A stretch of 58,027 nt of DNA, counting the filler, from Sluysia triapertura (Eukaryota): the NCBI GenBank assembly GCA_046118255.1. It is 5 parts of 5 records of this genome, joined end to end, with 100 filler letters (N's around TTAATTAATTAA, not from the genome) between each part and the next. Parts side by side here need not be neighbours in the genome. Positions count along the whole stretch, not along the records: positions 1 to 11,056 come from JBJNIA010189552.1; 4 more parts are not named here. The stretch is one strand, 5' to 3'. The translations under genes were made by a program, and so were the position numbers. The notes under the pieces are model-generated. The model was given only the letters and a program-made list of their open reading frames with translations, searched no databases and had not been told where the DNA came from. Of the stretch, positions 8,714 to 56,555 are shown in pieces; the stretch's first letter is position 1; every line of letters starts with the position of its first letter.

Positions 8714-9890
8714 TTTATATATGTTTTTTATCTATAAATATAGTTTAGTCTGAGGTTTATATCCCATGACGATACAGCTACAGGTCTTTTCTACTAAATC
8801 AGCTGAAAAGTTATTCGTCCAAAAGCACTGTCTAGCAAATTTATTTGCGGCGAATAGTTCCCCTTAATTTGAACTCTGAACAAATCGTATTTATGAAATA
8901 ATTCTACTCTTAGGGTATTAGTTCCTAACCGTTAAATAATTATTAATGAATAATAAACGACTTATTAAGGTTTATTAAACAAGTAAATAAAATAAAATAA
9001 AATATATATAAAATAAGAATGAGCATCTTAATCGAAGTTATTTTGATTTTAAATTTAATTTAAACCAGTATTAATTGTTGATTTTAAAAAGTTCGAGATT
9101 TTAAGTAAGATTTTAAGTCTAAAAACATAATAAAGAAAGCCTTAAGAGTAAAAAAACTTACGACTTCATGGAATATGATTGTATAAAATAAAATTTCGGT
9201 TAGTGTCGGCAATTGAAAATATCTTATTTCTTCGAATAATTAGTTTAAGAGATTAGAAATTCCGATGACGTTATTGAAAATCCTTTGCTAAGATAAGTTT
9301 TTTAACTTTTTGGAACAATAAACTTTATTTTGTTAAATCCTTTTATACATATAAAATCATAGAACTTTATTTCTTGTAATTAAAAGATTGTATAATTTTC
9401 TTTTGTAATGAAGCTTAAAATTTTTTATTACTTTACTTTCACAATTTTGATTTTAATTTGTTAAAGGAAATTTTTAAAACAACTATTTTTAAATTTTAAT
9501 TATTTTATTTTTTATATATTTTTCTAATAATTTAAAAAGATCAATAATTTTTATTAATAATATATATATATATATATATATGAAATTTTTAACAAGGTCA
9601 ATGTTCTTTTTTCTCCAGAATCATCGTATGAACTAGTATTCTAGTAATGTGTCACTGCGACTGACAGAAACAAAAACAAAATAATGCTGTTATTTTTTAT
9701 TATTATTATATTATCAACCTTATAATTATATTATTCTACCTTTATGTATTATAGGATTGTGCAAGTCTATATACTCATCGAAATAATTTTTTTAATACAT
9801 AAAACTTGACAGTAGTATTAGAAATATGAAAGAATATATTTAATTTTCTCATCTTCTTGCTCTCTCTGTCCACATTCTCATGTTTTTATA

Positions 9891-10305
9891 TGTTGGGATA
9901 AAAGGCCTAAAAAGTGCCAAGTAGTATAATTGAATATATTAAAAATGAAATTGTTAGACGGGGCTGATTGCTCACTGGTAGAGCATCGACTGCGCAGACG
10001 ATGGTCCCGTGTTCGATTCCCAATCAGTTCATTTTACGAAGTCTAACACATATATTAGAAAGTTGATTTAGTTTCATTGAATTTAGATTGAGATAGTTAA
10101 TAAGTAAAAAATAATTTGTACTAAGAGAATAGTAGACCCTCTATTAATTTTTGAATTGTGCATCAAGACTAAGATTGTCTTTTCGTAGTATTGACATATT
10201 ACTTCTATAACTAAGTCTTCCGTGAGATATAAAACTTAGATTATAGGCGAACCCAGTAAGATAATTATAATTGTCCAGTAAGAATTTTAATAAAATAACC
10301 GAACA
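9891..10305 (+). mobile_element. 5' LTR of a Ty3/Gypsy element containing a tRNA-like module
   Basis: Termini TGTTGGG...CCGAACA (imperfect inverted repeat), AATAAA at 10289, immediately followed by PBS and gag. Confidence 0.7.
9961..10031 (+). ncRNA. tRNA-like (pseudo-tRNA) Pol III module, copy 1
   Basis: Acceptor stem GGGCTGA/TCAGTTC, D arm GCTC-ACTGGTA-GAGC, B box GTTCGATTCC, followed by TTTT. The anticodon arm is irregular. Confidence 0.75.
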
Positions 10306-10311
10306 ATTATT

Positions 10312-10329
10312 TGGCGCCCGAATTGGGAC
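10312..10329 (+). promoter_or_regulatory. Primer-binding site, tRNA-Lys(UUU) type
   Basis: TGGCGCCCGAATTGGGAC matches the canonical TGGCGCCCGAACAGGGAC at 16 of 18 positions. Confidence 0.9.
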
Positions 10330-10477
10330 GAATCTATAACGATTGACGTAATAATTGACATTGATATTAACTTTTAACGTTTAAGTAGCTAAACTATTTA
10401 GGTTTAAGCATTTTTATCGCTGGATTTTTTGTAGTTTTTTAAGGATAGATATAAACGACAAAGAAAATAGAAGCGGA

Positions 10478-11056
10478 ATGCGCAGAATTAATTCTTTAGA
10501 AAATATTAAAATAAGTAGAACTAGGAAAACTAGGCAATATAAACCAAATATGGAACAAACAGCAGAAGGTTTAAGGGATTGCATTAAGCACTTATCAGTA
10601 AATATGAAACCTGCTGTTATTCTCCCAGAAATGAGGAAATTTAGTGGAAATGAAGAAGAATTATGCGATTTTCTTTATGAATATGACAGCGTTGCAGTGA
10701 ACGGCTGGTCAGAGATAGATAAAATTAAAAGAATTCAAAATTATTTGACAGGCGTCGCTATCCAGACGTACAAAGAAATTGAACCAGAGAAGAAACAAGA
10801 TTGGATTACATTTTAAAATACGTTTACAGAAGAAATTGCTTTAGATGACAGGTAAATATCATCTTAGAATGTTAAGTACTAGGAGACAAAGAGAAGATGA
10901 AACTGTTTATGAATTTGCTTGCGCGTTAAAGTGTTTAGTAATAAGGGCTAAAACATCTAATGATAAGATGGAAGCAACGTTAATAGATAAACTTAAGAAT
11001 GGTTTACGACCCGAATTACAAGTATTTGTAAGTTTAATAGATAATAAACCGTTTAA
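10478..11056 (+). pseudogene. gag: Ty3/Gypsy gag (stop plus frameshift at ~10816-10845; truncated by gap)
   Basis: FSG..E..DFL..Y...A..NGWS...K...L.G.A and RQREDETVYEF...L...LIDKLKNGL.P retrotransposon Gag motifs, downstream of the PBS. Confidence 0.88.
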
Positions 11057-11156
11057 NNNNNNNNNNNNNNNNNNNNNNNNNNNNNNNNNNNNNNNNNNNN
11101 TTAATTAATTAANNNNNNNNNNNNNNNNNNNNNNNNNNNNNNNNNNNNNNNNNNNN
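11057..11156. other. Assembly gap spacer (also 21964-22063, 34996-35095, 46781-46880)
   Basis: N44-TTAATTAATTAA-N44, a six-frame-stop linker. Confidence 0.97.
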
Positions 11157-13085: not shown

Positions 13086-13217
13086 TAAGGAATCTCCAGC
13101 AATCGGTTTAGCGTTTACCAGAAAAGCAAAATTCCATACAGGTGGAATTACTAAGGAATCCTTAACAATTAGTTTAGTGCTTATCCAAAAAGCAAAATTC
13201 CATACATGTGGAGCTAC
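13086..13217 (+). repeat. 66-bp tandem duplication (two units)
   Basis: taaggaatc...aaaagcaaaattccataca.gtgga repeated at a 66-nt offset. Confidence 0.85.
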
Positions 13218-21963: not shown

Positions 21964-24900
21964 NNNNNNNNNNNNNNNNNNNNNNNNNNNNNNNNNNNNN
22001 NNNNNNNTTAATTAATTAANNNNNNNNNNNNNNNNNNNNNNNNNNNNNNNNNNNNNNNNNNNNAATTAAACATAATAATTAAACTACAGCGACTATTTAT
22101 AATTTAATGACTTACTTTATTGCATTAAATCTCCTTTTTAATTAAATATATTCATTAGATTTCCAAAAATAACAAAATATTATATTTAAATTATTGATAT
22201 ATTTAATCTTTACAAAATTGATTGTTAGAATATTTATTTAATCAAAATGTGTGTGTACATATGCATAATTAATATTGATTTGATTTGTATATTGTTTCAT
22301 TGTGTTATTGTATGTTTTTACATAGCAATAATAATGAATTATCTAATTACACATATTTACGATGCTAATAATAATAATAATAGCAGCAATTTAATTACCA
22401 TCATTCCATTTCATTCTGGAAAATTGAAATATTATATATACATTACAGTTTAAAATATTTATTACTTATAATTTAAAATATTTAAAATTAAAATATTACA
22501 AATATTACTTATAGTTTAAAATTACAGTTTTAGAATTTAAGATATTAAAATTTACGTACATTACAGTTTAAAATATTTATTACTTATAATTATAGTTTAC
22601 AGTTTATTTTACATATATTAAAGTTTATAGTTTACAGTATAAAATCTCTATGTGAATTAAGTAATAACAATTTATGGAAGTGATTATAAAATTTCACAAA
22701 ATCTTTTTACAAGTACTTTTACTACATTATAGTACTATATAAAAAGGAAAAGTTAAATTTGACACCTATTATTTCTCTACAATGTACAGACATATTTACT
22801 TAATCTTTGACAACTATTTAGCCTAATTATACTAGTTTTACTGGTTCCTAATTAAAAATGAAATATCAACGAGCAGATAAATTTATTTGATTGTTTTAAG
22901 TACGATTAATCATCATGATCGTGTAAATCATATTTGAAAACAAATATAGTAGTTCTCCACACACTTGCAGAAGTCATTTCATTGAATTCGCTAGCTCGAA
23001 TTATGTATTTTCCAAATAATGTTAATATATGGCCACTTTCTCTTAGAAATTCAGAAAGCCTAACGCGCTGAACAGATTTAAAATGAACGATAAAAACCAA
23101 TGTAATATTAATATTACCAGTACCTTGGGTTCAGATGTTCTTATGCTAAATACTGATGTTAATTTAGATCAAAGTGATAACGATATTAATAAAGATATTT
23201 TAGAATTATTTTTTACAATTACAGTTTTAACTAATTGTTTTCTAAATTCAAATAGTACTAAAGTTAAAATATGTGTTTTTAAATATGAGATAATCAAGTT
23301 CTACATGAAATTAAAATATTATCGAAAGTTAGGCGTCTACTTTTTGCTCGGTGTTACCGAACATTGATCGAAAAAACATTAGAATATCCATTTTATATTC
23401 AGTTTATGAAAGTAATATTACATTTCTAAGTATTTTTTCTACTTTCGTATTTATAAAATTTTACATTGTTGAAAGATTTATAAATTTTGTCGAAGTTTCT
23501 TGTAAAAGATACAAATACGCCTTTCATTTTAAAAGTTGTAAAGTTTTGAAACCTAATGTGATATTTGTACTAACAAAAGACCTTAAGTCTTATTGTGATT
23601 CATTTTGGTCCATTACAAAATTAAAAATTAAGAGGCTTGAGCTCATTTTGACGTTTCAAATTAGTTAAAGGCTTTAGGCCAAGAGAATGTTATTTCATTA
23701 GTCGTAAAGATATTAAAATGATCAAATTGTATGTGAGTATTCATTTTTCATTGTAGTGGCCAACTAAATGTTTTATTTCCAAAAAAAATTCACAACAAAA
23801 TCACCTTTCACAATTCATAATATTTCCAAACATAAAATTACATACCATCAAATTTACATTTAATACCGAAAATCATCAAAGATTTACTTAAAAAATTAAT
23901 TCTAAACATTGCAAACTTAATTCAACATACTTCATATAAAATCACATTCCATAACATTCTAACTATTAACCATTAAAACCTTTTTTATATTTTATTTCTT
24001 CAGATCCACTTAAACCATTTTCCATACTTCAAAACCTTTAAATTAATAATCAGTCAACATTCAATCTCTAATATCACCGAAAACATTAAATTAACACTTT
24101 GAAACCATTTTAGATAGTTTAATCAAAATAACATTCTCTAAACACTCTAGCATCGATCATCTTTATCAAACATTATCTTAACAGCTGTTTCTATAATTTA
24201 CACCTTTAACCACCAATACATTTAAAAATTTACTTAAAACAATTTTATCCTTTATCTCATAACACTAAAATCACAATCACATCCTAAATCACAAACAGAC
24301 ACCTTCAAATCAATCCAGAATATTTCAAGCTCATAATCTTTCAACAAACATTCTTTAACATTCTAAGTCAAGATCATATAATGAAACTAAATAGAAACTA
24401 AAAAGGGAAAAGAATTTTATTTATGTTAAGAAAGTAGATTAATTTTAAAAGAAAGTTTATGCATTAAAAATTATCACAAATATTCTACATAATTTTATTA
24501 TCATTATTATTAAAATTATTGTTTCTGTCATTATTTTGCCACTATTTTCAATTACATTTTATCTATACACTTTGCCATCACTCGACAGGAATCTAATTAA
24601 ATTAATTTAATCTTTCGTATTAACTGTCGATTGATGACAGTTTATAAGTTGATGTTGCCGTTATTTTTGCTTGTCACCATTTAATTATCTTAACTCTTTA
24701 GTAGTATGGTGATAAGCATGCATTTATGTAATCATGTTTGTGTTTTATGACAATTGATTAGATGTCCAATCAAATACATCTCATCTCTGCAATCTATCTA
24801 TTGGGATTGGACATCCAATCAGGGTAATCCACCTTTTTAATAATAGAATACTACTTTATCATTACAAAAAAGTTAGTTGCTGACAAGTGATTCATAATAG

Positions 24901-27297: not shown

Positions 27298-30200
27298 AAT
27301 TTCATTGGAATGCTTAAAAATGTCTTCACAAGATTATTCATCTACCAAAGAAATAACAGAATACCTGCTGCAAAAATTAAGTAGTTGTTCAAATGCAACA
27401 TATTCGAATTTAAGTGCATCAGCACCAGATACAGAAGTAGATTATATTTTAAATGATAATGGTGCTACTGATAACATATCAGATATAGATGTCGAAATTC
27501 CAGCTAATATAGTTTCAGGGGAATTCGTAGGTCCAAATGGTGGTAGTACTTCATCCAATATATCAATAATTACAACAAAAACTATCGTCGATGATATATG
27601 TAATAAGAAGTACAGCATTTGCGATGTAAGTTTTACAATTTATTAAAACTGCTATTACGAGGTGTGTAAATTCATAAATTATTATATTTATTTAGCTATA
27701 TTTATTCTAAAGCTATTTATATTTTGAGCGTTAATTATAATTTAAAGCATTATTTAGCCAATAATAATTATTTATCCTTAGTAATTACTTAAAATCAAAA
27801 AAATAGTTTCCATATGCATAGAAAATGAACTAAAATCATAGAATTAAATATTCCAATCTGTAAAATCGCCTATAAATTGATGATTTCATGTTATTCTATT
27901 GGATAACAAATCCCTCGAGAACAATGTAGAAAACTAGTAAAATAAATAATTTGAAAAATAAACTAATTTATCAAATGGTATGTACGTTTCATCGGAGTAT
28001 ATATTTGTATAATAATAATTATTATTTGATTGATAAGATAGGTGATAAAGTTTAGCGGATTATCTTTTTAAAATGGAAAAATAAAAATTAGGACTCAGTG
28101 AAGTAATAGATTATAATAAATTGTATAAATTAGATATATAAAGTGTTTCTTTATATTTATTAGAAATTACTGCATATTTATATTAATTGATTATAACAGC
28201 TTCGCTTAATCTTTTATCACTTATACATACAAATAAACTCAGCGAGAGTAATTAACTGCACATGGTTCAAAATTCACTTTTAAAATGTTCAACTCACAGT
28301 ATTTGTGTTAAGTACAAATTTATAATATAACATATTATAATAATGCATATTGTGTTATAATAGTATAATATATTATTATCTTATATAGATATAAGAATAG
28401 GACTTCTGATTAAACTGGGAATGATACTGACCTAATGTGTGATCATCATCAACGTACATCTAATAAAGTTATAATATACTAATGAAAGTTTAAGGTTATT
28501 CGATGTCTAATTTCTTTGAATATTTCTGTTTCCATTCATTAAATGTTGAAATGAAAGAATTTGATATCTTAATAAATTATTTATTAGTATGACAATTTCG
28601 TCTTTAACCCTAACGAAAAATAGACTTGTGGTATTCAAACTTATCAACATCATTCTTTATTTTGTTACGACATTGTTGACTTACTCGTGAATTCAGTATT
28701 AATGTAGTTACATAAACACGTATATTTTTGAAGATATTTTGAATGTTTTAAGGATTTTGGAATTGTATCGCCATAACAAGCAAAAACTATAAAATTTTCC
28801 ACTTGAATTAGAATTTCTCTATTGCTTTTCCCCCTATTTAAAGTTTGGAAAACCTGGGTATTTATTTATTTTTATCTATTTTACGATTTAAATTATTTAA
28901 ATTATTCGCATTGTTATTGTATTTTTTTGTTAAAACACATTTGCATTTTATTTATTTCAGTTTTTTTATCTGATTGCACTTCATTATAGATCAAAATCTC
29001 TTCAGTTCTCTGCAATAGAATTATAACTAGGTTTGATTAAGGTTTTTCATCTTTAAAAAGTTTCATGTTTTCATTTTAATTTTATTTAATTGCTGGGTTC
29101 TTTATGACGAACTCCTAATTCGAATTAATAAGTTTAGATTGTTAACGAAAATAGCGATTAGCAATAGAGTAGAGTAAAAGAAAATATATCAACTTAAATG
29201 TTAGTAAAATACGAAGAAATAAGTTTAATTTCAATTGTCAGCAATAGATGGTGATTTTTGTCACTTATCGGGATTGAAAATTATGTGACAAACGACGGCA
29301 CTAACGTATTCTGATCACCGTTGTAATTCAACCAATTGAAAATAGCTTGGTATTTTATTCTAAATTTATTAAGACTACAGAAAAAGAAAATTTAATTAAA
29401 TAAGTAAATTAATAAAAATAATTTCACATTTTTTCAGTTCATATTTAAGAATTTCTTGTATTTAAAAATTATTTTTTGCTCTTTATATTTATTGATCATT
29501 CTCCACTCAAAGACTGTATACTATCAGCTCAATGTATAAGTAAGTCAGATTAATAACCCAATTTAAAATTCATAGAAAATATATTTCAAGATATACAAAT
29601 TAGCAATCCGACAAATTTTACTTTGGTTAAGTAAGAAAATGTAGATACTAGGCAGTAAATTGACCAGGATCTGGTATTCTATTAAATTATTATATAAAAA
29701 GATACATTTTAAAATTTAATTTTACTTAAAATTTGAAAAATTTTGTTTGGTTTTATTTCAAGAATACTCCATTTCTGTAAATGTCTCGTATTACAGAAAT
29801 AGAGGAAATATAATCCTTAATGTAATCATTTGTTTAAGAAGATAGATTCGATGTTTACTCGAATCGATAAAAAAGTTTTATTTCAGTTAGCATTATGTGA
29901 CTAACTTATTTAAATTCTAAATATTACATGATTAATTTGCATATACAGTATTTGAATATTATTAGGGGAAATTTGGAGGTTTGTTATGATAACATTGTGC
30001 ATTGTTTCAAAATTACATTAAACTTAAGTTACGAGTTTCATATTTCTTCTGAGATTTTTTAACTTGGTCTTCATCAGGTAATCGAAAATATTTATTAATT
30101 AAATTAAATCAAGTAATTATTATTCAGTTGAACTATGCACAATGTGAAGCATTACATTATTATGGATATCCAATTGAATGTTCAATTTTGGCGTTCGAAT

Positions 30201-34995: not shown

Positions 34996-35464
34996 NNNNN
35001 NNNNNNNNNNNNNNNNNNNNNNNNNNNNNNNNNNNNNNNTTAATTAATTAANNNNNNNNNNNNNNNNNNNNNNNNNNNNNNNNNNNNNNNNNNNNTTCAT
35101 CGAAAAATCATATTTAAAATTATTTTGAAAGTGAAGAATTGATTAATTCTGTCGTAACACTGTATATTTTATAATTATATAATTTCTTTTTATATACGTA
35201 AAATTTTATTGTAAATAATAAATCTTCGAGTTAAATTCATTGTTTTTCGAATTATAATAACTTCTATAGTCTCAACTATAAAATAACCACTTAAATAGAT
35301 TTGTTATAGTATAATTCTAACGGTGTAAACTAATTATTCCGATCCTGTTTCAAAGGATCATCGAAAAATCATAATTAAAACTATTGAGTAAATTTTACCT
35401 TTAAAATATCTGACATAACCTTAAGATTTTCTAAATTTTGTTAACCTCCAATACTTTCACTCTA

Positions 35465-35553: not shown

Positions 35554-36669
35554 TTTTGATGTTGATTTTTTAGTTTTATATGTGATTGCATAATTTTTTG
35601 GTATTTTGTTTATTTTAATTATTTTATATTTATGAGATTTTAGTTAAATTTTAAATGAAAGGTATGAACACCACAATATTAATAAATGATGACTTTTGGT
35701 TCAATACTCAAAACGTTAATGGTACGTCACAGGCGTCAATTTCAATGATCTCATGGATTTAGAATGATAACATAATTTTATTATATATGCCCATTAGAAT
35801 ACATGTAAATTTAACTTTATAAAGAAAATTAATTCAAACCGATTATTCTACATTATCTAAGTTGATACAATTCATAATTGTGCTTCATTATATGTCATAC
35901 CCGCTCCAATGCAAACATCACACGAAATTTTATTGATTTTCAAACAATATAATTAAATTAATTAATAAATATACATATGAATGTTTATTTAAACTTTAGA
36001 AATAAATAAATATATTTATATTTTATTTATTTATTTTTTAAAATAATTTTTAAAACTGTTTTTATTTGAGATTAAAATCAGTTTTATTTTTCATTAACTG
36101 TGACTAAATATTGTTGTGACTAGTCACTAAACACAGCATGAAATTACTAATAATAAATTAAAATTTTGATAGGCATTCATAAGCTGTTTAGTAACTAAAA
36201 AGACTGTCAGTGGTTGTATTGTATACTAAGCAACTGTCATTATTCGACAGTTTAGCAGGTGGTATGGATTGATTTTAAATAAAACTTTTGGCTAATGACA
36301 GGTGTAGGGAAATCATATGAAATTAATCATACTTTATCACATAAAAACATCACTTGCATACACAGAACGTTAAACAAACTACTATGCTCCTTCAAAAAAC
36401 AAACATAACATTTATACATAATTATCATGAACTATACCTATTGTTATTATAATTCCAGTCGTATTAAAATATATAATAATTATTAGGATTATTATCGTAT
36501 AATATAATTGCCACGAGTGTCACAATAACTGTCATATCAATATCATCAACAATACCATTATTTTAAAACATATAATAATTATTATATTGTTATTGTTATT
36601 CTTATCATTATTATTTATTTTATCCTTATTATCAACCTTTCTTCTTATTTTTTTGTTTTTTCCAAGACA

Positions 36670-39000
36670 ATACAATATCATTTAACCGGAGTAGCGATAC
36701 AAACGTATAAGGAAATAGGTAATGTATAGAAACAAAATTAGAATACGTTTGTTGATATATTTACTGAAGAAATAGCATTGAAGATATAGGTAAATATTAC
36801 GCAAAGATGCTTAATATAAGAAAACAGAAACCCAATTAAACAGTTTACGAATTTGCTTGTGCACTTAAAAGTTTAGCATCAAGAACCAAAATTTCAGAAT
36901 AAAAAATAAGCAATTAATAGATAAATTTAAAAGTGGCCTATGCCAACAATTACGAATTTATCTAAGTCTAATTAAAAATTTACCATTTAAGGATATTGTT
37001 AGGAAATTAAGAAGAATGGAATGACAAGGAAATGAAGAAGGAAATAATATAAGTTATATAGATGATAATAATAAGAATATAGAAAATAATTCCAGTGAAC
37101 GCCCTAGGCATAAGTATATGGGATATGTGCAAACAATATCTACAAAGGCTCAAAAGACCAATGGTAAATTTCAGAATAAATTGTGGATTGGTCTCATCAT
37201 TAATAGACACGGGAGTAGTGGCCTTTCTAATTAACGAAAATTTCTTAACTAGAGAAGAATTAAAAAACTATTCTAATCAAACATCTCATTTATCAGGAGT
37301 ACAGGTGATGCATTTAATATAATCGGTGTAATGAAAGCTATTTGTGAAGTTAGAAATTAAATTATTGTTATGAATAAATGTCCGGAGAAAATGATAATGG
37401 GAATGGGTATATTATCACAATTAAAAGGAATTATATTAGATTTTGTTCAAGTAAGGTTTATGCATAGTCGATCAAAAAGTTCTATTGATAATGATGATGT
37501 ATATGTAGACGAATCACTTTGGCTATTAAATGCCAGCTAAAACAAATAGTCTATTAACTAGCTGTATTATGTTTATTGTATCTGAGATATAGGAATAGCA
37601 AGTGCAGTGTGTAACAATTGTGAAGTAAATATGTCTGTTCGCATTATAAATTATACAAATGATAAAAAATGGCTTCATACTGGTACAAAGTTAAGAAAAT
37701 CGTTAAGTATAAAATACCTATGCATATTAATATGATAGCGGAAGATAAAAATAAAAATAAAAATAATATAAAATTATAACGTGAAGTACAAAATGAAGGC
37801 TATGGTGAAATTGAAATCACTAATAAAAATTTGACGAAGATGCAAATAAATCAGTTAGGTAGTGACATTTATCTTTACCCAAGAGCAATAGCTAAAAATA
37901 ATTATGATATTAGAGACTCAATAATAATTAAACATGAGATACCATTAATAATAGACAACTTAATTCGTAAAAAGCCATACAGAATACCAATATGTAATAA
38001 AAAAGAAATGCAGGATCAAATAGATACTATGGAAAAGGCCGGCGTAATAAGGCCAAGTTTCTCACAATTTTCTTCTTCAGTTTTATTAGGGATTTTTTTA
38101 GACTTTAGGAAATTAAATAGGATAACAGGAAAATATGTATAGAAAAAATGTATATTTTACAACTAATGATTTACAAAGCGGATACTGGCAAATAGAAATT
38201 GCCAAAAAAGATAAGCATAAAACTCAATTTACTTGTGGTGATGAATTATACAAATATGGAAAAATTCTACTTGGATTGACTGGAGCACCTTCAACGTTTC
38301 AGCGGTGCATGGGTTTCGTACACTCAGGATGTAAAAATGTTATGGTATATATCGACGATATAATAATATTTTCTAAAGATTTTCACACACGGAAAGGATA
38401 TTGACAATATTATAAATAGATTAGAGTTTGTTTGGGCTGAGGAGAAAGTCGAATTTTTAGGACATATAGTGTCGAAAGATGGAATAAAGCCAAATCCGAA
38501 AAATAGTGAAAAATTGGTCAAATTCGCACAGCTAGGTAACGTAAAAAATGATTCAAAGTTTCATAGGATTAGCCAATTATTGTAGGAGATTTATTAAGAA
38601 TTTCGCTAAAATAGCTCAACCACTTAGAAAGTTAACGAAGAACGATGTTGAATTTAGATAGGCGGATGAACAGATAATAGCATTTAAAGAATTAAAATAG
38701 AGGTTAACGACGGCAGTGATATTATTTTTTCCAGATGTCAATAAATCATTTGTATTCACTACGGATGCTAGTAATTATGCTATCGGAGCAGTGATTGCGT
38801 ACACCAGTCGACATTTAAACAAGCCAAAATGAATTACTCTACAATGAAAAGGAATTTTTAGCTATAGACATTACCTATTAGGACAAAAGTCTATTTATAT
38901 ACAGACCACAAACCACTAACATATTTGTACAATCATAAAGATGAAGTTAGTAGACTGACTGGGTGGTTCAATAAGTTATCAGAATTAGATTTAGAAGTTA
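36670..39000 (+). mobile_element. pol: Degenerate Ty3/Gypsy gag-protease-RT-RNase H
   Basis: gag LTGVAIQTYKEI identical to the 10478 copy; protease LIDTG; RT KPYRIP, DFRKLN, DLQSGYWQI, GLTGAPSTFQR, YIDDIIIFS; RNase H TDAS and TDHKPL. Many stops and frameshifts. Confidence 0.93.
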
Positions 39001-41750
39001 TCCCTACCTCACTTGACAACTTTTTTATTTCTGAACTTGGGACGTTGAAACAGTGGGACCTCTTATACCAACGTTCTTCCCTTTCTGTCTTCGATGAGGA
39101 TAGACTGCTTTTGTAGCGTATCATTACGCTGTTGATTTCAGCAATCAAACCCAACTCACTGGTATTGCTTGCACTCCACGCAGCAAGCAATTCCATTCCG
39201 AGGTGTGAACAAAGCCTCGTAAAAAATTTCTTACGATACATACAACTAATTTCCGCAAAAGACCTCCAGTTGGGTAAGGATATCGATAGCGTCAAACCTT
39301 ACCTTTTAAATTTATTCCATAATAAAATATTTGTACCACTTAATCCCCCATTAATTATCCAAGTATTGGGTATCCCCTTTGGCTGGTTGAGAGGTATTAT
39401 GAACCTAACCAACCACAATCTTTTACCTCTTAGAGGCATTCCTAAGGGCAAGGCAAACTTTAACATTACTATACCCAGTAATTTTAATAAAACTTTAAAA
39501 TTTTTAACTTTAATTACATATTAGAAAAAAATGAATTAACGAGATTATTAAAAACACTAGGCGTAAGGCCTTTTAAAACATTAAAACACTTTAGAAACTT
39601 TTAAAAAACAAATTATACAGTTGTAAAACAATTTTATTAAATGAATCAAAACTTATAAAATATAAATATACATAAAGATACGATAAGAAGAGTATATGTC
39701 AATGATAGCACATACGACCTAGCGCATAAAGTTTTTAGTAAAAATTTAGTAAATAAATAATTTATTGTTTTACATAATGTATTGGAATCCGTTTGATACT
39801 TAAAACTCGAGTTATTTAACTTTAATGAATGGATCATCTTTTTGCATATAATTTGTAAATAATCGTAAATAATTTATTCATTTTTTAATTATGTCTCTTA
39901 GGCAATAAATTAATATTACTTTTTTGTATTTTAACTTTATTTCCAGGTAGGATGAAAAATTAGTGGTAGCAGCATTAGCAACAGCAGCGATGGAAGCAAT
40001 AAAAGTAACATTAATGGTAGGTGTTATAGTAGTATTAGTAGTAGTAATAGTAGTATTAGTAAGAAATTACTAAATCTTTGATAAATAAATAAATAATAAT
40101 ATTAAATTAAAATTAAAATAAAATTAAATCTATAAATTACTGGTTATTTCTGGCTTATTTCTGGCACCCTTTTACATAGAAATTTTGAAAATTGTCACAT
40201 ACGCCTTATACGAGGATTTTGCAAAGAATAAAATATTTAATTCAATTAATTCAAGGAGAAGTGATTGCTGAAGAAGAGAATGAAATGGAAGGAGCTGATT
40301 TAGTTAATCTTCATCCTGTGATTTCTCAATGCTTTGATTCAGATATGGATAATGAAAATTTTGATATATTTAATGAGGAGAAACTTTAATAAATGAAAAT
40401 TGAGAAGTTCTAATTTTATTGTTAGCTGGGGTGCGCCTTATACACTGATCCACCTTATACGTGGATTTTGCAAAGAAAAAGTGATTTTTGAAGGGGTCGC
40501 CTTATAGGTCGAAAAATACGGTATTTGTCTTAAACCATACAGTAAGAATATATATTAACTTGATTTGATTATATTGATTGATGTAACTTCCTAAATTGCA
40601 CAATATCTACTAGCTAGGTTTGGTTTAAATTTCTCTTATAAATTGCTGAGCTCATTTCCAAAGACTCAAAGACCGTTTACTATGTGCCAATTTATTTGCT
40701 GCATAACTATACATCAAAAAGTACATTGTATGTGCATAAGGTCTTTCGAAGTGGTCTAATTCTGAGTTGACACTCTTATGAAGTATTTCTCGTTTCTCCT
40801 TTAACACAACCAATTTACTTTCCAATGTTAAAATATTATTTTTCAATTTTTGAATTTAACCATAACTTTCAGATTCCGTAGGATGTTTTGAAACTTCACC
40901 TTTATAGATTGAAACATACGTTGATGTCGTGGTTGTCCAGAGGATGTAGTTATTTCCCAATATTTTACAATAATGTTTTTATACTTTTCATTAATAGTTT
41001 CAGAGTAACTTTGAACAATGTTGAATTTTATCACAAAAATGTTCTTTCGTGTAGTAATTTGGTCATGATTAGAATTCAGTACAAGACGAGATAAACTTAA
41101 ACGAATTATACTGTTCATATTATTGTAATAATAGTAATGTTCTCTAATCTATTTTTAATGTAACAATAATTATATTTCATATTTAGATCGAATTCTTGTT
41201 TGAGTTATACAATTTTTTTAGCAGATATTTGAAAAATATTGATATAAGATCTAATTTGAAGAATGCGGAGTTGATACAGATTAAAATCGTATTAAAATCA
41301 TAGTGGATAAATAATCTCGACAAAATAATAAAAAATAAAAGGAAAAGTGAAAAAGAATAAACACACATACAAAAGTGCAAACATATAAACATAATTACAT
41401 ATAGATATACGTACAAACAAAAGGGAAGTGAAAATAATATAGTTGTAATAATAATAAAATTATAATGATAACAATAGTAAAAATGAAGTTTAAATTGAAT
41501 TTTTACATAATTTAACATGATGATGTTGATGGAGTTGCGATGATAAGAAATTACCATGAAAGTTATTATTGTTATGGAGGTTATGATAACAATAAATATA
41601 GTAAATGATAATTATGTACAATGACTATGTTTATTTTTGAATGAGTAGAGTAGTTTATTTAGTGTTTTGTTTATGTAAGAAATGTTCATATGCGATGAAG
41701 TGTGTTTGCAATTTTATGTGAAAATGTGGGGTTCCCTACATTGTGTACAA
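39000..41750 (-). repeat. Inverted diverged copy of the 18440-20520 element region, interrupted by a pogo fragment
   Basis: Same collinear nucleotide matches as listed for 18440-20520, plus similarity between the encoded peptides. Confidence 0.68.
40170..40523 (+). mobile_element. pogo/Tc2-like DNA transposon right end
   Basis: Terminus GTCGCCTTATAGGTCGAAAAATACGG|TA, subterminal CCTTATAC..GGATTTTGCAAAGAA repeats, and acidic tail FDSDMDNENFDIF like pogo transposase C-termini. Confidence 0.78.
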
Positions 41751-44332: not shown

Positions 44333-44488
44333 TGTTAGACTTCGTAAAGTGGACTGACCGGGGATCGAACCCGGGACCATCGCTACGCAGTTCGATTGCA
44401 CTAACACTGAGTTATCAGTCCCGTCTAACAATTTTAGATTATTATCGTCAATATACCATCATGGCACTTTAGACCTTTTAACCCAACA
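44333..44488 (-). mobile_element. Second copy of the LTR 5' segment plus tRNA-like module (solo or partial LTR)
   Basis: Reverse complement TGTTGGGTTAAAAGGTCTAAAGTGCCA...TGTTAGAC-[tRNA]-GTCTAACA aligns with 9891-10048. Confidence 0.7.
44350..44421 (-). ncRNA. tRNA-like (pseudo-tRNA) Pol III module, copy 2
   Basis: Perfect acceptor stem GGACTGA/TCAGTCC and perfect T arm CCGGG-TTCGATC-CCCGG; homologous to 9961-10031 including flanks. Confidence 0.75.
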
Positions 44489-45125
44489 AATTATCACTTT
44501 ATTTAATTTCATAATTGATCGTACAAGTTAAATTACTATTTCTAAAATAATATAACACATATCGATAAATAGTATCAATATTTAAATGCATTCAAAAAGA
44601 GTTCGAATTCAGGTCAAAACAGAAATCATAAGATGATAAAAACAATTTTTTGAAGCTAAAAAAATTTTAATTAATTTTTTTCATTCGAAAAACTGAAAAC
44701 CCAAATAACATCGCAATTTTCTTTAATTTTTATTGATACTATTTAGCGAGATACTTTGTCTTATTTTTCATTACTTAATTTGATAAAATCTATCAAGAAA
44801 TTTTAATTTTTATTTAAACTAATTGACAGAATTTGATAAACCTATTCGATATCATATGATTAAATTATTGTTATAATAATATTTATTTCATTTAAGTATT
44901 TTTCTATTTTTCCTATTAAAAGTGTAATTATTTTTATTTACAATTTTCTCATTATTCATAAAAATTTTACAATTTACATTATCATTATAATAAATTTTTC
45001 ATATGAATATTTTCTGCTAATTTTTTCTTTATATTTATTGAGAAAGATACTATATTACCTATCGTTAAAGTATAATTATTTATAATGTTTTAATAATATT
45101 TCTCTTAGAATATTCGGCGCCAAAC

Positions 45126-46583
45126 ATGACTTTTTGCGATAAATCAAGTATACAAAAAAGCCTTTCTGATTTTTATAATAACGGTAAATTTGGTAAAATA
45201 CTTGAATCAGAATTGAATGAAAGTTTGCTAAATAATCGTATTGTGTCTGATGAAAATTTTGGAACAATTAAATTTGTTGGTAATTTACCAAAAAGTAATG
45301 GAATTTGGCTTGGAATAGATTGGGATGATCCTTCAAGAGGTCGACATGATGGCTCGTATAATGAAGTTAAATATTTTCTAACATGTGGACCTAAATCTGG
45401 ATCTTTTGTTAGGTTAGTTTCATTCGTTAGAATTGATTTTGCTTATGATGTGTTTGGATTATTTATGTAATTCGTAATTATATGTTAATAGGCCAAATAA
45501 AGTTTCACGAGGTTTATTATTAGAAGAAGCAATTGACATGCGATACGGAGAAGTTAATGAAGAATTCGCGAATGTTATGCTAGAAGAATTTTATTTAGAA
45601 AGTAGTGGTAGTGAAGATGAATGTGGTAGAACTGTAAAAAATCGGAAGCTTTATAATCAAGGACATCAGAAAGTTAAGGTATATAATACAATTTTATAAT
45701 AAAATTATATTCCAGTAACATTTAATCTCTTTAAATCCATAAGTATAATTTGTAACATGTTATTAGTTTTTAATGTCCACTATTCAATACTTGAGATTTA
45801 GTTAAATAAATTTTTTATTGTAATGTTAGTTTTGTAGCAATATGAAGGAACTTAAGTTGAAAATGTTTATTATTGAAACTTATTTATTTATGTTATTTTC
45901 AATTAGGTTCATATCACTGGTCCAGCAACTTCTGCATTCAGTGTCAATATGGGTATGCTGGATAAACTGAAATCTTTGGTACTACATTCATTACCAGTAT
46001 TCAGATGCATGACTGCTGAAGAAGGCGGGTGTAAATTGATTGAAATAGTTCCGTCAGTACAAGAATTAGATTTAGCACAAACCCTTATTAATGATTGGCT
46101 TAATGTTGCTAAGGTTTTTTAATTATTGTAAAATTATTACTAGAAGTGTAAGTCGGGGACTTTTTGAAAAACTAAATTCGATTCCCATTTTAATGCTTTT
46201 ATAGTACAAATATTTTTATATTAATGTTTACATTTAATACTAAGTTCTATATTAGTCTCAAAAAATGTTCTTCCGAAGGTTTTCTAATATTGTGTTTTAT
46301 ATATATAAAATATTTTAATATATTCTATTAATTTATATTTTAGATTTGCGTTCAATTACCATCTTTGACTAATTTGACTATTAGTGATAATAAATTTATT
46401 AGTCTTTTTCCAAAGCTTGTGAATGATCCCGATGATACAGATATTCGCATTGAATTGTATAAAAAAGGATTCCTAAATATTAAAAACTTAGTAATGGTTC
46501 GTTTCTATTACAGCTGGACAGAATTGCGAAATCTTTATAATTATTTTCCTAATTTACAACACTTATGTTTGGCTTATAATAAA
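45126..46583 (+). CDS. TBCE: Tubulin-specific chaperone E, 5' part; exons 45126-45412, 45492-45678, 45907-46113, 46344-46583 (rest not found after the 46781 gap)
   Basis: CAP-Gly motif GTIKFVG..GIWLGIDWDDPSRGRHDG..YF..SGSFVRP, followed by LRRs (VQELDLAQTLINDW, LPSLTNLTISDN, FPNLQHLCLAYN). All introns are GT-AG, phases are compatible, and there are no internal stops. Confidence 0.92.
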
Positions 46584-47314
46584 GTTAGTTTTCCCTTTTA
46601 CTGTTTTTAAACATTATTTTAAACCATTAATCTTTATACCATTGAGCTTGTAGTGTCCAACTCATTCACCATCCTCTAACAAACGCAATCACAAATGTTA
46701 GTATTTTCCTTATTCCTAACAAATTATCTGTAGGGTCAGTTCGCTTAGTATATACGTTTTATACCAAACTTGGAGACGTANNNNNNNNNNNNNNNNNNNN
46801 NNNNNNNNNNNNNNNNNNNNNNNNTTAATTAATTAANNNNNNNNNNNNNNNNNNNNNNNNNNNNNNNNNNNNNNNNNNNNGTTTAATTTTATATAGTGAT
46901 ATAAATTTCGATTTGGGGAAGATTTTTAAGTAAGTTGAATCGTGTTTAATTAAAGTGAAGTTACTTTGTTTAAAATTAAAATTTAATTTATTAGTAGAAT
47001 TTAATTCAAAATTTAACAAAATAACACAAGATTTTTGCGGGTGAACTACCAAGAAAGTAAAATTCATAACAGTTATAAACAAAGACAGTTACAATAATTT
47101 TTTATCAATACTGAAAATAAATTACATGTGCTAATAATGGAACTGTAACAGTATTACAAACCAATTACACAAAGAAAAGAAAGTCTACAGATGAAGCAAA
47201 AGATAAATTTCCACATTGAAAAAGCTAAAGAATCTATTTTAATTTGAAGTTGAGGTTGTATTTACAATTAAATTTAAAATTTCAATTAAAAGTTAATGTG
47301 TCCGGTTGTTGTAG

Positions 47315-49290
47315 TGTTTCAACCACGCACTATAATCTCATTGTCGTTCTTATACATAAATGCATGCAAGTCATAATTAAGTCATACATAATTTACATAT
47401 AAAACATTTTCCTCATATCACTACTTCAAAAAACCTACAATAAAATATATTTAAGTTATTAACCGCTAAAATTACCAGCAAATAAACATCACATTATTAA
47501 TTCATTGTACGCAACACAATTCATGAATTATAAAGCTTCAAACCACAAAATCTTATAATAAAATCAAATTAACTAGATCAAATTATAATAACCCAATATG
47601 TTAAAATTATGCTATTTATCGCCATTACAGCTATCGTTTTTTTATTTTTTGCTAATGTACTAACCTCAAAGCATAACATTTTTATAACAATTTTAAGTAT
47701 TAAACAATCAGGACTCCAAATTCTACGTAATAAATGAATGCTTTTGTCAAAAATGAATGTTTTTATTAAAAATTGGGTTTTAATTAAAAGTTTGCATTAA
47801 TAGAACTTATATATTAATTAAAAATTATGCATTAATTAAAAAATTACAATTAATAAATCATGCATTCTTTTTGTTTGAATGCGTGATTACTTCCTTATTG
47901 AAATTATAATTTTTTTATAATTTTTCTTTTATTTTTATTATAATTTATTTTTAATTTTACTAAATTTTTAGTATTCAAAAATTATTCAATTTAATTTTGT
48001 TATATATTTTATTATGGAAAAGTGAAAAAATTGTAATTAATAATTAATCAAGCAGGACTAATTCTCCAAGTTTGAAGATCTTATGTAACACTTTATCTTA
48101 AAGAATTACATTGATTGCTAATAAAAGCAATAATAGAATTTTAAATCATTACGGAAGTCCTAGATATTTTTTAGAAAATTGGAAACCAAGATGAAAGTTT
48201 CATTGAGGCATGATAATCTATACAGAATCCACAGTGATAAGAAGCTAGGTGAGTTTTATGAGTTTTCTTATGCAAGTTTTAAACAGATTTAGAATAGATT
48301 ATGATGTTGTTAGAGATGAAACATTTCTTAGAATGGAATCTGTGAAGGATTCTAGAAGAATTCAAAATCTTATTAGAGATATCACTAATTTTAAAAATTG
48401 TTCTCAACCAGATAAAAAATGTTTTGAAAAATTGTTGATTATATTTATTGTATGTTAAATAACGTAGTTAAATGCTACAAATTGCTTAATTTGTAGGATA
48501 AATTAAAACATAATGAACGCTCTCAAAGTTTATTACTTACTTAATTTCCGTGTTTCTTTTTTCAAAATTTTTAGACAGAGTTCTCGAGCAAATTTTGTAA
48601 AGTCCGTTGCACATTTGACAACAATTATGAAACGTGTAACCACACGTGCAACACTAAGAACATTGTGTAACATTAAATTAATTAACCATAATAAGATTTC
48701 TATGTCGATAGCAGTACTGCCTTTAAAAAAAGACTAGTTAAAGTTTTAAATTTGATTTCACATGAATTAAAGACTAAAAGACTGGATTATTGTGATGTTT
48801 TGCAGAAAAAGATTAGTATTTTAATGAAACAAGCTTTTGGACGGTTCATGGTGTCAGTTAGAGAATACGATACCGTTATGTTTTATTTAGAGTCACTTAA
48901 ATTATTGAGCTTTACTATAGATGTGTTTGATAGTATCGAAGAATTGGTAACTAGGTTGTTAATGAGGCAAGAAAATCGCTCGGAAAATATAGCAAAACCT
49001 ATATTTGTGTTGCCGAAACGTCGTTTATTGCCGAAGATTGATTTTCTATGTTGGACATTGTATCTTACATAATCAAACGAACAATAATGTTTGTTATTTT
49101 ATCTATTATTGTCGTTTTTGCCAATTCATATAATTTTTTGTGTTTTTGTGTTTTCTTGTTCCATTTATATGATTAAGGAACTTAAGCCCACTTTTAGAAA
49201 GATAAATGTTTTAATAGTCTATAAATTTCATAATGGTTATCATAAATTAATTTTTTAATCAAATTAACAAAATACTAAGTGTAAAAACAT
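47315..49290 (+). repeat. Dispersed repeat copy 1 with decayed ORF (C.V.CTFDNN.ETCNH...ELKTKR...LMKQAFGRF)
   Basis: Aligns with 55316-56555; about 800 bp in the middle is absent from copy 2. Confidence 0.85.
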
Positions 49291-52461: not shown

Positions 52462-54114
52462 CGACGATTAAGAAGAGCTGCTAAAAAGGCACTAAAAAAA
52501 ATTCCACTAAAATTTTTAAGTAGTGATGATCCAGAAGTAGAAAATGAAAATTATAGATGTGCAATATGCATTGATGTTTTCAAAGTAAATGAAATTGTTC
52601 GTACACTACCATGCAAGTAAGATTGATGATTATAATGTAAAATATTTTGAATTTGAAATTAATTTGTATGTATTATATTATTTTATTGATTATTAATCCT
52701 TTGACTGGAATATGTGTGTAAAAGAAATATTTTTATTTACATTCAATAACGAAGAAGGAGGTTGTTTGACCATATTTGTTGACAGTTTATTAAATTATGT
52801 GAAAATGTTACATTAATAAATAAATTGGTTATTTTATTTCAGATGGTTTTGTTTCAAACATGCTTGTATTCTATAAACTATATTTAATTAACTTGTTGTG
52901 GTGCAGTAATTTTCTTAGAATGCTGGTAGCTTGGTTTAAGTTAATTTTAGAATGAATGTATGTCAATGAAATATATCCAGTGATACCGAATATTACATTT
53001 GAAAAATATGAAAATGCGAATTAAAAATTATCAAAAAATTTACGTGCTTTTAAAGAAGCGTGTGTGCAAAGCACAAAACAAAAATTTGAAATGCATTGTT
53101 AGGCACTGAAAATGCAGATAAATAACTTATCAAAATACAGACAATTAATAATACTAAAAAAACTGACTAATGTCAGTAAAACATTAACTAGGAAAGAAAT
53201 ATATTCAAATAACTGAAAACTAAGATTATAAAAACTTTTACCTCCACTACCTCAATATGATTTTAGTAATTTTGTCATTAGCCCCCAAAATTTCACTTTT
53301 ATCTGATACTCGCCCGCAGTTATGAAGTTTTACTATAAAAATTACGAAACAAATAAAAATCAATAACAGATGTGCCGAATATTTAGAATTTGTAAATATT
53401 CTAAAAATAGGTAAAAGATTTCCGATCATGAATCTATCCTATCTAACCATAAATTTATCTGTCTATTAATTATATTATATTATTTAGACACATTTTTCAT
53501 AAAGCCTGCATAGATTGTTGGTTACTGGGACAACGAAGTTGTCCAATGTGTAAACTAGATATACTTAAAGAATATGGATTCAATGAAATAACTGGTACTT
53601 TCCCAAACAATGATGACGACGACGACGACGATGAAAACAACGATTTAACTCGTCAATCCGCATCTGGTCATTTGAATAAGTTACGTGACGAATATTTCTA
53701 TATTTATAAACCGAATTGTGAGTCACCCACCAAACTGCATTATAATGAGGTTTTGCAATTATTAAAACACAGTTGCCGTCATGCTAAAAGATGCCGTGAT
53801 TGTCGACACAAACATAATATGAATGATAAAAGGTATAATATTAAGCTTTATTTTCATTTATATATTTTTTCGTTAAATATATTCTACAAATTAAAAGTAT
53901 TATAGTTTTACTAATTACGTAGTACAGGTAGTCATGTCACAAATTTATTCAACTATTTTAATTATTTTTTAATTCATTTTTAATATTTTCATGCATTTTT
54001 TAATTTTATTTATATTTTAATTATTATATAATTAGAGACGTACAATCCTTTTTTGTGCCACATCCGTATCATCAAAGAAGTTCACCAAAATTGATAATTG
54101 TGTTTAGCGTCTAG
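52462..54114 (+). CDS. PA-TM-RING (Goliath/RNF130/RNF150-like) E3 ligase, 3' exons 52462-52616, 53488-53832, 54036-54114
   Basis: [15 protein letters not shown]...[20 protein letters not shown]|[26 protein letters not shown] is a RING-H2 with the Goliath-family flanks. Introns are GT-AG and in phase. The last exon is less certain. Confidence 0.87.
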
Positions 54115-55315: not shown

Positions 55316-56555
55316 TGTTTCAATCGCACACTATAATATTGCTGTCAATCTTATACACAAATTCATACAAAGTCATAATTCAAGTCATACCTAATTTACG
55401 TATAAAACATTTTCTACATATCGCTAAATCAATTTACTTAATACAAGAATCTTACAATAAAATATATTTAAGTTATTAATCGCTAAAATTACCAGCAATT
55501 GTACACATTATATCAAATAAACGTCACACATTATTAATTCATTGTACTCAATACAATTCAGGAATCAAATTATAATAACCAAATATGTTAATATTATGCT
55601 TTTTTTGTTACACGAGTCCTCACGATCGTTTATCATTATCAGTTATCATTGATTTTTTTTAAGTTTTAGTTATGTATCAATCTTCAAGGCATAACACTTT
55701 TAGGACAATTTCAATTTATTGAACAATCAGGATTCCAAATTCCAAGTAATAAATTAATTCATCTCAATATTCGTAATACTAAATTATGTTTAGAAAATTT
55801 AGATTTATCAAACAAAATTTGTAAATTACGCAACAAAGTGTATTACGTACTGAATTTTCATGTTTCTTTTCAAAATTTTCAAACAAAAATGTGTGACGTT
55901 CCATGCACATTTGACAACAATTGTGAAACGTGTAATCACATGAGCAACACTATGAACTTCGGCAGTGCTCTATCTAAAAAATGAAAATTAGTGAAAATTT
56001 TAAATTTGAATATAAATGAATTAAAGACAAGAAGAGTATATTTTTATGATGTTTTGCAAGAAAAGACAAGTAATTTAATGAAACAAGCTTTTGGACGTTT
56101 CATAGTCTTGATTATAGAACATGATATGGTTTAAATTATTGAGCTTTAGTATAAACACGTTTGGTTGTATCGAAGAATGGCAACTAAATTGTTCATCATG
56201 GTGCAAGAGAATCGCTTAGAAAATATATTAAAACCTATATGTTTTGTCGCTGATTGCCAAAACTTAATTTTCTATGTTGGAAATGGTTTCTTACTCAATC
56301 AAATAAGCATTAGTATTTGTTATTTTATGACTGTCGTTTTATCCTGCCAATTCGTGTAATATATAAGGACCTTTCGTGTTTCTGTTGTTTGATTTATATG
56401 ATTAAATGTTTTAACAGTTCATGGGTTGAAATATTGTAAATCTTTTAATTTTAAATATAATTTTAATTTTTACGAAAGTTTTCATAAATTTAATAATGTT
56501 TATCACAAAGTATGTTTTATATACGAATTAATAAACAACCAATGATAAAAACATT
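55316..56555 (+). repeat. Dispersed repeat copy 2
   Basis: Shared blocks such as tgcacatttgacaacaatt and ttaatgaaacaagcttttggacg. Confidence 0.85.

Follow-up and report, generated by a model that had tools for sequence, protein, structure and literature searches.

We analysed a 58,027-nucleotide window of DNA from Sluysia triapertura (assembly GCA_046118255.1), in which five parts of the genome are joined end to end. The window is AT-rich, with a GC content of 21-31%. The gaps between the parts (11057-11156, 21964-22063, 34996-35095 and 46781-46880) are identical, each consisting of 44 N, a 12-nt AT-only palindrome and another 44 N, and they are artefacts. Near the end of the first part lies a 158-bp unit bounded by TGTT and AACA, which contains a tRNA-like unit and an 8-bp inverted repeat, here called the clamp. 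The initial annotation had placed this cassette in the LTR of a gag-encoding Gypsy element and had reported a second copy on the minus strand. The features of the 158-bp unit and its second copy are as follows.

9887-9890, + strand: left flank TATA, candidate target-site duplication (TSD), 3/4 match to the right flank
9891-10048, + strand: probable Helenus-type TRIM solo LTR, 158 bp, TGTT...AACA, delimited by homology to the second copy, contig joints and the layout of Helenus LTRs
9952-9959, + strand: left clamp arm TGTTAGAC, complementary to the LTR 3' terminus, at the end of the inferred U3
9960-10031, + strand: tRNA-like unit, worn in the first copy; A box at 9968-9978, B box at 10011-10019
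10032-10035, + strand: T4 run TTTT, candidate weak Pol III terminator (TTT only in the second copy)
10041-10048, + strand: right clamp arm GTCTAACA, identified as the TRIM LTR 3' terminus by copy homology and contigs
10049-10052, + strand: right flank CATA, candidate TSD with one mismatch, from flank comparison
44333-44488, - strand: 156-bp second copy, likewise a probable solo LTR of this TRIM family, flanked by AATT and ATGT

We compared the two copies to define the ends of the unit. The second copy (44488-44333) aligned to the first with 80.7% identity over 161 columns (E 1e-31), which bears out the earlier report. Homology begins at TGTTGGG (9891) and ends at GTCTAACA (10048), sharply in both copies, and the 400-bp flanks of the two copies were no more alike than shuffled sequences (87/300 and 296/300 shuffles reached their scores). 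The order within the unit is 69 nt, the tRNA-like unit, the T-run, 13 nt and AACA. The flanks TATA and CATA match at three of four positions; the probability of this is about 0.10 by chance and 0.40 for a TSD that has decayed by 10% on each side. The flanks of the second copy match at two of four, and no TSD is apparent there. Within the window, we found no third copy of the 158-bp unit and no full TRIM copy with two LTRs and an internal part, and beside the second copy (44333-44488) there is no PBS, PPT or gag.

We also aligned contigs from four public runs (X1-X4) to positions 9500-11056; the details given here come from 40 of the 280 variant rows, 15 of the 30 joints, 24 of the 654 loose ends and 32 of the 7815 pieces. 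The share of sampled words was 0.54 for X1, which may be the window's own source, and 0.04-0.06 for each of X2-X4. A separate scan of metagenome contigs with the unit pattern gave 0 matches.

The tRNA-like unit with A and B boxes was confirmed. Its acceptor stem retains 7/7 pairs in both copies, and the G-U pairs of the first copy stand where the second has G-C or A-U, as the initial annotation had described. The other stems differ between the copies: the D stem has 4/4 pairs in the first and 2/4 in the second, and the T stem 2/5 and 5/5, respectively. Rfam tRNA and ARAGORN both detected the second copy (44421-44350, 35.1 bits, gathering 29), but the tRNA-like unit of the first copy was missed by both. 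Folding of either copy was little better than that of shuffles (z -1.1 to -1.7). The first copy deviates from the tRNA pattern at two positions of the A box and four of the T stem; in X1, the tRNA-type letter made up 88-99.7% of the summed depth at these positions, indicating that the family retains the putative promoter and that the first copy is worn. The T-run after the unit was also as described (TTTT at 10032-10035).

The perfect inverted repeat was likewise upheld: TGTTAGAC and GTCTAACA form 8/8 pairs and are invariant between the two copies. As both arms are invariant, there is no covariation to support the pairing. The clamp duplex has a predicted energy of -8.6 kcal/mol, compared with -5.5 for the true termini. 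Perfect 8-bp inverted repeats with similar spacing number 173 in the window; six have at least three G/C, two of which are these clamps.

We next consider what lies beyond the ends of the unit in the contigs. Comparison with Helenus families was made by eye against parts 1, 5, 6, 10 and 11 of the 11 parts of the Kojima 2024 supplement (PMC10886601) and with one motif search of that supplement. In one X2 contig, position 10048 is followed by 83 unrelated loose nucleotides starting with TT-TGGTGAGCCC. This loose end begins with a Trp-like PBS placed 2 nt past 10048, agreeing with nine of the first ten bases of the Trp-type PBS in Fig. S2 of that supplement, and it is unlike the Lys PBS. A search for the Trp-like PBS within the window gave only one match at two mismatches, which is chance level, and none at either copy of the unit. 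In one X1 contig, 10048 rejoins 9891 head to tail through 34 nt with a purine-rich end and no clear PBS, and another X1 contig passes from 10048 to 9942 through 17 nt. The second PBS and the head-to-tail joint were seen in one contig each. At the opposite end, a different flank enters the unit start in three X3 contigs. The empty-site joint 9890-10053 was absent among the 15 of 30 joints listed.

One further X1 contig joins gag position 10680 to 9888, at the unit start. This arrangement fits either nesting in gag or a deleted element whose 3' LTR begins with the unit. As a second case of the unit beside the same Gypsy family, it could hint at targeting.

Downstream and upstream of the 158-bp unit, we identified the features of a Gypsy element.

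9602-9890, + strand: putative 5' part of the Gypsy LTR, opening with TGTTC, an inverted match to the GAACA terminus at 10305
10053-10305, + strand: 3' part of the Gypsy LTR, with TATAAA at 10228, AATAAA at 10289 and the end CCGAACA at 10305
10312-10329, + strand: Lys-type primer-binding site, matching a PBS in Fig. S2 of Kojima 2024
10550-11056, + strand: broken Gypsy-type gag that carries a stop (10814-10816) and a frameshift (near 10850) and breaks off at the gap at 11057

The Lys PBS held up, with 16/18 bases identical to the PBS given under tRNA-Lys in Kojima Fig. S2 and none of 100 shuffles matching. The claim that the cassette lies inside the LTR serving gag was not confirmed: a second ACA end (10305) lies 257 nt past the unit, the PBS lies 263 nt past the unit and follows that LTR end, and the homology between the copies stops at 10048.

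The extent of the Gypsy LTR was assessed from its termini and from the contigs. The + strand of the window holds 41 occurrences of TGTTC, of which just two, at 9602 and 10010, fall between 8500 and 11000; the chance of finding it in the 9602 bin is about 4%. The X1 summed depth was 2 in the bin 9552-9603 and then 1258-2533 over 9604-9863, part of which is inflated by ATT repeats at 9690-9740; X1 variants were found in 53 contigs at 9639 and in 57 contigs at 9812. The TGTTC start and the rise in depth suggest an LTR of about 540 bp (9602-10305 minus the unit) that is interrupted by the unit. The stretch from about 10205 to 10329 is repeated in X1, X2 and X4 contigs. Summed X1 depth ranged from 88,000 to 1,900,000 across the unit, dropped to 248-518 in 10072-10175 and stood at 28,000-193,000 in 10176-10331, a weak hint, given that summed contig depth cannot rank parts. 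Contigs of X2-X4 barely cover 10072-10175, and we give this no weight. No contig was seen joining 9602-9890 to 10049 or beyond, and neither 9602-9890 nor 10049-10305 has a second copy in the window. One score for the Gypsy LTR parts exceeded the shuffles (44 vs a maximum of 36), with the ATT repeats as the probable source. A weak match at 21002-20975 was rejected, as no PBS lies behind it.

The gag named in the initial annotation is present, though broken. Its first piece matched proteins P0001 and P0002 in HMMER (E about 1e-5, 1.84 billion proteins), and its second piece matched P0002 with 34% identity over 58 aa; P0002 carries Pfam Retrotrans_gag, and the gag pieces of the window had no Pfam match by themselves. 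P0003, an FG-GAP repeat protein (E 7.6e-4) and one of the three HMMER matches, was discarded as spurious. The stop and the frameshift were mostly not shared by the contigs aligned there. Among 401 metagenome and 164 viral candidates, no gag relative with flanking DNA was confirmed, and word-index protein searches passed 0/33, 0/1 and 0/88 candidates.

A decayed relative of this Gypsy element was found at 36600-39000 on the + strand, with a gag of 67% DNA identity to 10732-11056 followed by protease (weak), RT and RNase H fragments in that order, as recognised by Pfam. It is 5'-truncated and adjoins no LTR, PBS or tRNA-like unit. We assign these elements to Gypsy rather than BEL from RT and RNase H motifs together with the Pfam matches. 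Overlapping the RNase H fragment and continuing behind it, where an integrase would be expected, two overlapping frames of 121 and 135 aa lie on opposite strands (38933-39524); this segment is more GC-rich, the + frame has no Pfam match, and the segment is possibly another insertion.

Taken together, the unit's own 3' end, the other PBS behind 10048 and the limits of the second copy indicate that the 158-bp unit is separate from the Gypsy LTR. We consider it a Helenus-type TRIM solo LTR that landed, in the same orientation, in or directly beside the LTR of an unrelated Lys-primed Gypsy element, with a probability of about 0.8. Our confidence is held at this level because no empty site was seen, the second copy has no TSD, the start at 9891 agrees with the end at 10305, one contig joins gag to 9888, and the second PBS was seen in a single contig. 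Of the two placements, nesting inside the Gypsy LTR is clearly the more probable, and adjacency takes the remainder.

The assignment to Helenus was examined against the animal families in the covered parts of Kojima 2024 (PMC10886601). Animal Helenus elements (TRIMp3) have LTRs of 104-323 bp, a 4-bp TSD, solo LTRs and Gypsy-type PBSs including Trp, the class used by Helenus-2_SyJa; most of the LTRs consist of a TG start, a short 5' part, a tRNA-like unit, a T-rich stretch and an ACA end. The 158-bp unit resembles them in several respects. It is a TG...CA LTR whose copies, at 158 and 156 bp, fall within that range; its tRNA-like unit lies near the LTR 3' end and is followed by a T-rich stretch and the terminus; the A and B boxes are kept and the anticodon arm is not tRNA-like; and it occurs as probable solo LTRs, the first with a near 4-bp candidate TSD, and, in one contig, with a Gypsy-type PBS of the Trp class. 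It differs from them in carrying, inside the LTR, an additional 8-bp inverted repeat of its terminus, and in that the first copy lies within or next to the LTR of a different element. No direct relative among the Helenus families is apparent in the parts of the supplement compared, and each clamp motif occurs once in the supplement, in unrelated contexts; flatworms are missing from its Table S1, and if the host belongs to that phylum, the host group could be new to the 2024 list. The unit is likely a member of Helenus/TRIMp3, a kind described in 2024. Among other TRIMs, Cassandra and Ajax share with the unit a small-RNA-derived Pol III promoter within the LTR, but theirs derives from 5S and the one predicted for the unit from a tRNA (PMC10886601, covered parts). 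The neighbour resembles Ty3/Gypsy elements with a Lys-type PBS in having an LTR end with a TATA box, a poly(A) signal and ACA, a PBS 6 nt downstream and a Retrotrans_gag-type gag; unlike typical members, its gag is broken, its pol is hidden by the gap, and its LTR is likely interrupted by the TRIM LTR.

The initial annotation had proposed that a Pol III cassette may lie in the U3 of a coding Gypsy lineage. This would correspond to a gag-coding sub-lineage whose 415-bp LTR (9891-10305) opens with the tRNA-bearing unit; the sub-lineage would either have given rise to the TRIM or be a chimera that spread following a TRIM insertion. We regard this as improbable. The TGTTGGG start at 9891 does match the end at 10305 at 6/7 positions, as good a match as a true 415-bp LTR would give, one contig connects gag 10680 to 9888, and the 15 of 30 joints listed include no empty site. 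However, the unit ends at 10048 in the second copy and in three contigs, one of them with a different PBS; a near-TSD flanks the unit; and the repeat signal extends upstream to TGTTC at 9602. The idea of a coding lineage is not supported, given that the unit has an LTR 3' terminus of its own at 10048, directly followed in another copy by a separate PBS. Kojima's argument on Pol II partners also speaks against it: in the covered parts of PMC10886601, autonomous partners are held to need Pol II promoters and to be unlikely to share long LTR stretches with TRIMp3. If such a chimeric lineage were real, a Helenus-type LTR would have been incorporated into a Gypsy LTR, and this would be the first case of a Pol III cassette of tRNA origin in the LTR of a coding retrotransposon; for strand transfer, the RNA would be cyclised through the 8-bp clamp. 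Even so, unlisted precedents may exist, given that the same parts of the paper mention "not a few" Repbase LTRs with tRNA-like sequence and that only those below 1000 bp were analysed. Judged from titles and abstracts in the literature covered, we found no paper on a coding element with a tRNA-cassette LTR.

An independent SINE or MITE, in particular a tRNA-derived SINE or MITE-like insertion, would account for the tRNA-like core with A and B boxes, the dispersed copies with unrelated flanks and the internal 8-bp inverted repeat, and the pattern named for it in the initial annotation, with independent ends and heterogeneous flanks, was found in part. The features of the element nevertheless point to a TRIM LTR: the tRNA part begins 69 nt inside and not at the 5' end, the termini are TGTT...AACA with a fixed AACA end and no simple-repeat or A tail, one contig carries a PBS past the 3' end, a head-to-tail pair is present, and the perfect inverted repeat is not terminal at the left. 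We consider a SINE or MITE very unlikely.

Just as unlikely is a 97-bp mini-LTR running from TGTTAGAC to GTCTAACA and captured into a longer LTR, with the clamp as its terminal inverted repeat, for although the perfect 8-bp match is retained in both copies and the shortest animal Helenus LTR listed in the covered parts of PMC10886601 is 104 bp, the 61 nt upstream are present in both window copies (43/61 identical) and in the aligned contigs, among them one starting at 9890 and the joint back to 9891, so that such a mini-LTR would at most be an ancestral stage of the 158-bp LTR. Of the earlier suggestion that a tRNA-containing mini-LTR of about 100-160 bp was captured, the mini-LTR itself stands, as the 158-bp Helenus-type LTR, but a one-off nested insertion fits better than capture into a lineage.

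For a TRIM solo LTR beside a Gypsy element, a working model can be drawn by analogy with known systems. The first 69 nt would serve as U3, the tRNA-like unit as R and the last 13 nt as U5. By analogy with Cassandra as summarised in the covered parts of PMC10886601, Pol III would start at the tRNA-like unit of the 5' LTR; for Helenus itself, Pol III transcription is unproven in that source. The polymerase might sometimes pass the weak T3-T4 run and stop at the matching run of the 3' LTR. A Gypsy helper would supply Gag, RT and integrase, packaging and reverse-transcribing the TRIM RNA and integrating it with a 4-bp duplication. Common TGTT...AACA ends are expected for elements using Gypsy integrases. 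The helper would likely be Trp-primed, because Helenus families and their candidate partners have the same PBS class (PMC10886601, covered parts), and hence would likely not be the Lys-primed neighbour. LTR-LTR recombination could then leave solo LTRs like the two in the window, and the Gypsy gag may have broken after the TRIM insertion.

The clamp calls for a separate explanation at its left arm. As the layout of the unit fits a Helenus LTR, the right arm is merely the LTR terminus. The left arm might descend from the start of an older LTR of 97 bp, or it might take part in U3-U5 pairing in the full-length RNA like CYC5/CYC3 of Ty1; both suggestions are tentative, and we favour neither. In the covered part of PMC3592414, Ty1 likewise has short complementary motifs near the PBS and the RNA 3' end, but there the pairing is experimentally supported and CYC5 lies inside the element beside the PBS. 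The clamp pairing, in contrast, is a prediction; its arms do not vary between the two copies, and one of them is the LTR terminus. Conserved U3-U5 complementarity could be new and offers a candidate cis-element for TRIM replication.

If the reading as a nested or adjacent TRIM LTR holds, the locus contributes a further Helenus-type family together with a nested insertion. Its main value is as a caution: short tRNA-bearing LTRs resemble tRNA genes and, once they lie inside another LTR, look like a coding element that has a Pol III promoter. In the literature covered, which leaves most subscription journals and Repbase outside, we found no paper besides Kojima 2024 on Helenus/TRIMp3, save one mention in a sugar-beet preprint, and none on Helenus in flatworms.

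Several other observations were made elsewhere in the window. A CAP-Gly exon lies at 45069-45470 on the + strand (Atlas score 0.92), with the second-copy LTR about 580 bp away on the opposite strand; we take this exon to resemble tubulin-folding cofactor E. An exon at 53453-53560 is RING-H2-like, under the Pfam gathering score. At 30066-30152 on the - strand, there is a weak Rfam match to the snoRNA snR60/Z15 (31.2 bits, gathering 41, E 0.34), which is probably due to chance. The segments 47422-49102 and 55439-56328 share direct-repeat pieces of 67-153 nt with 78-87% identity, 7.2-8.0 kb apart, representing an old duplication or a repeat pair. Finally, a tandem duplication of 66 nt with 79% identity lies at 13086-13217.
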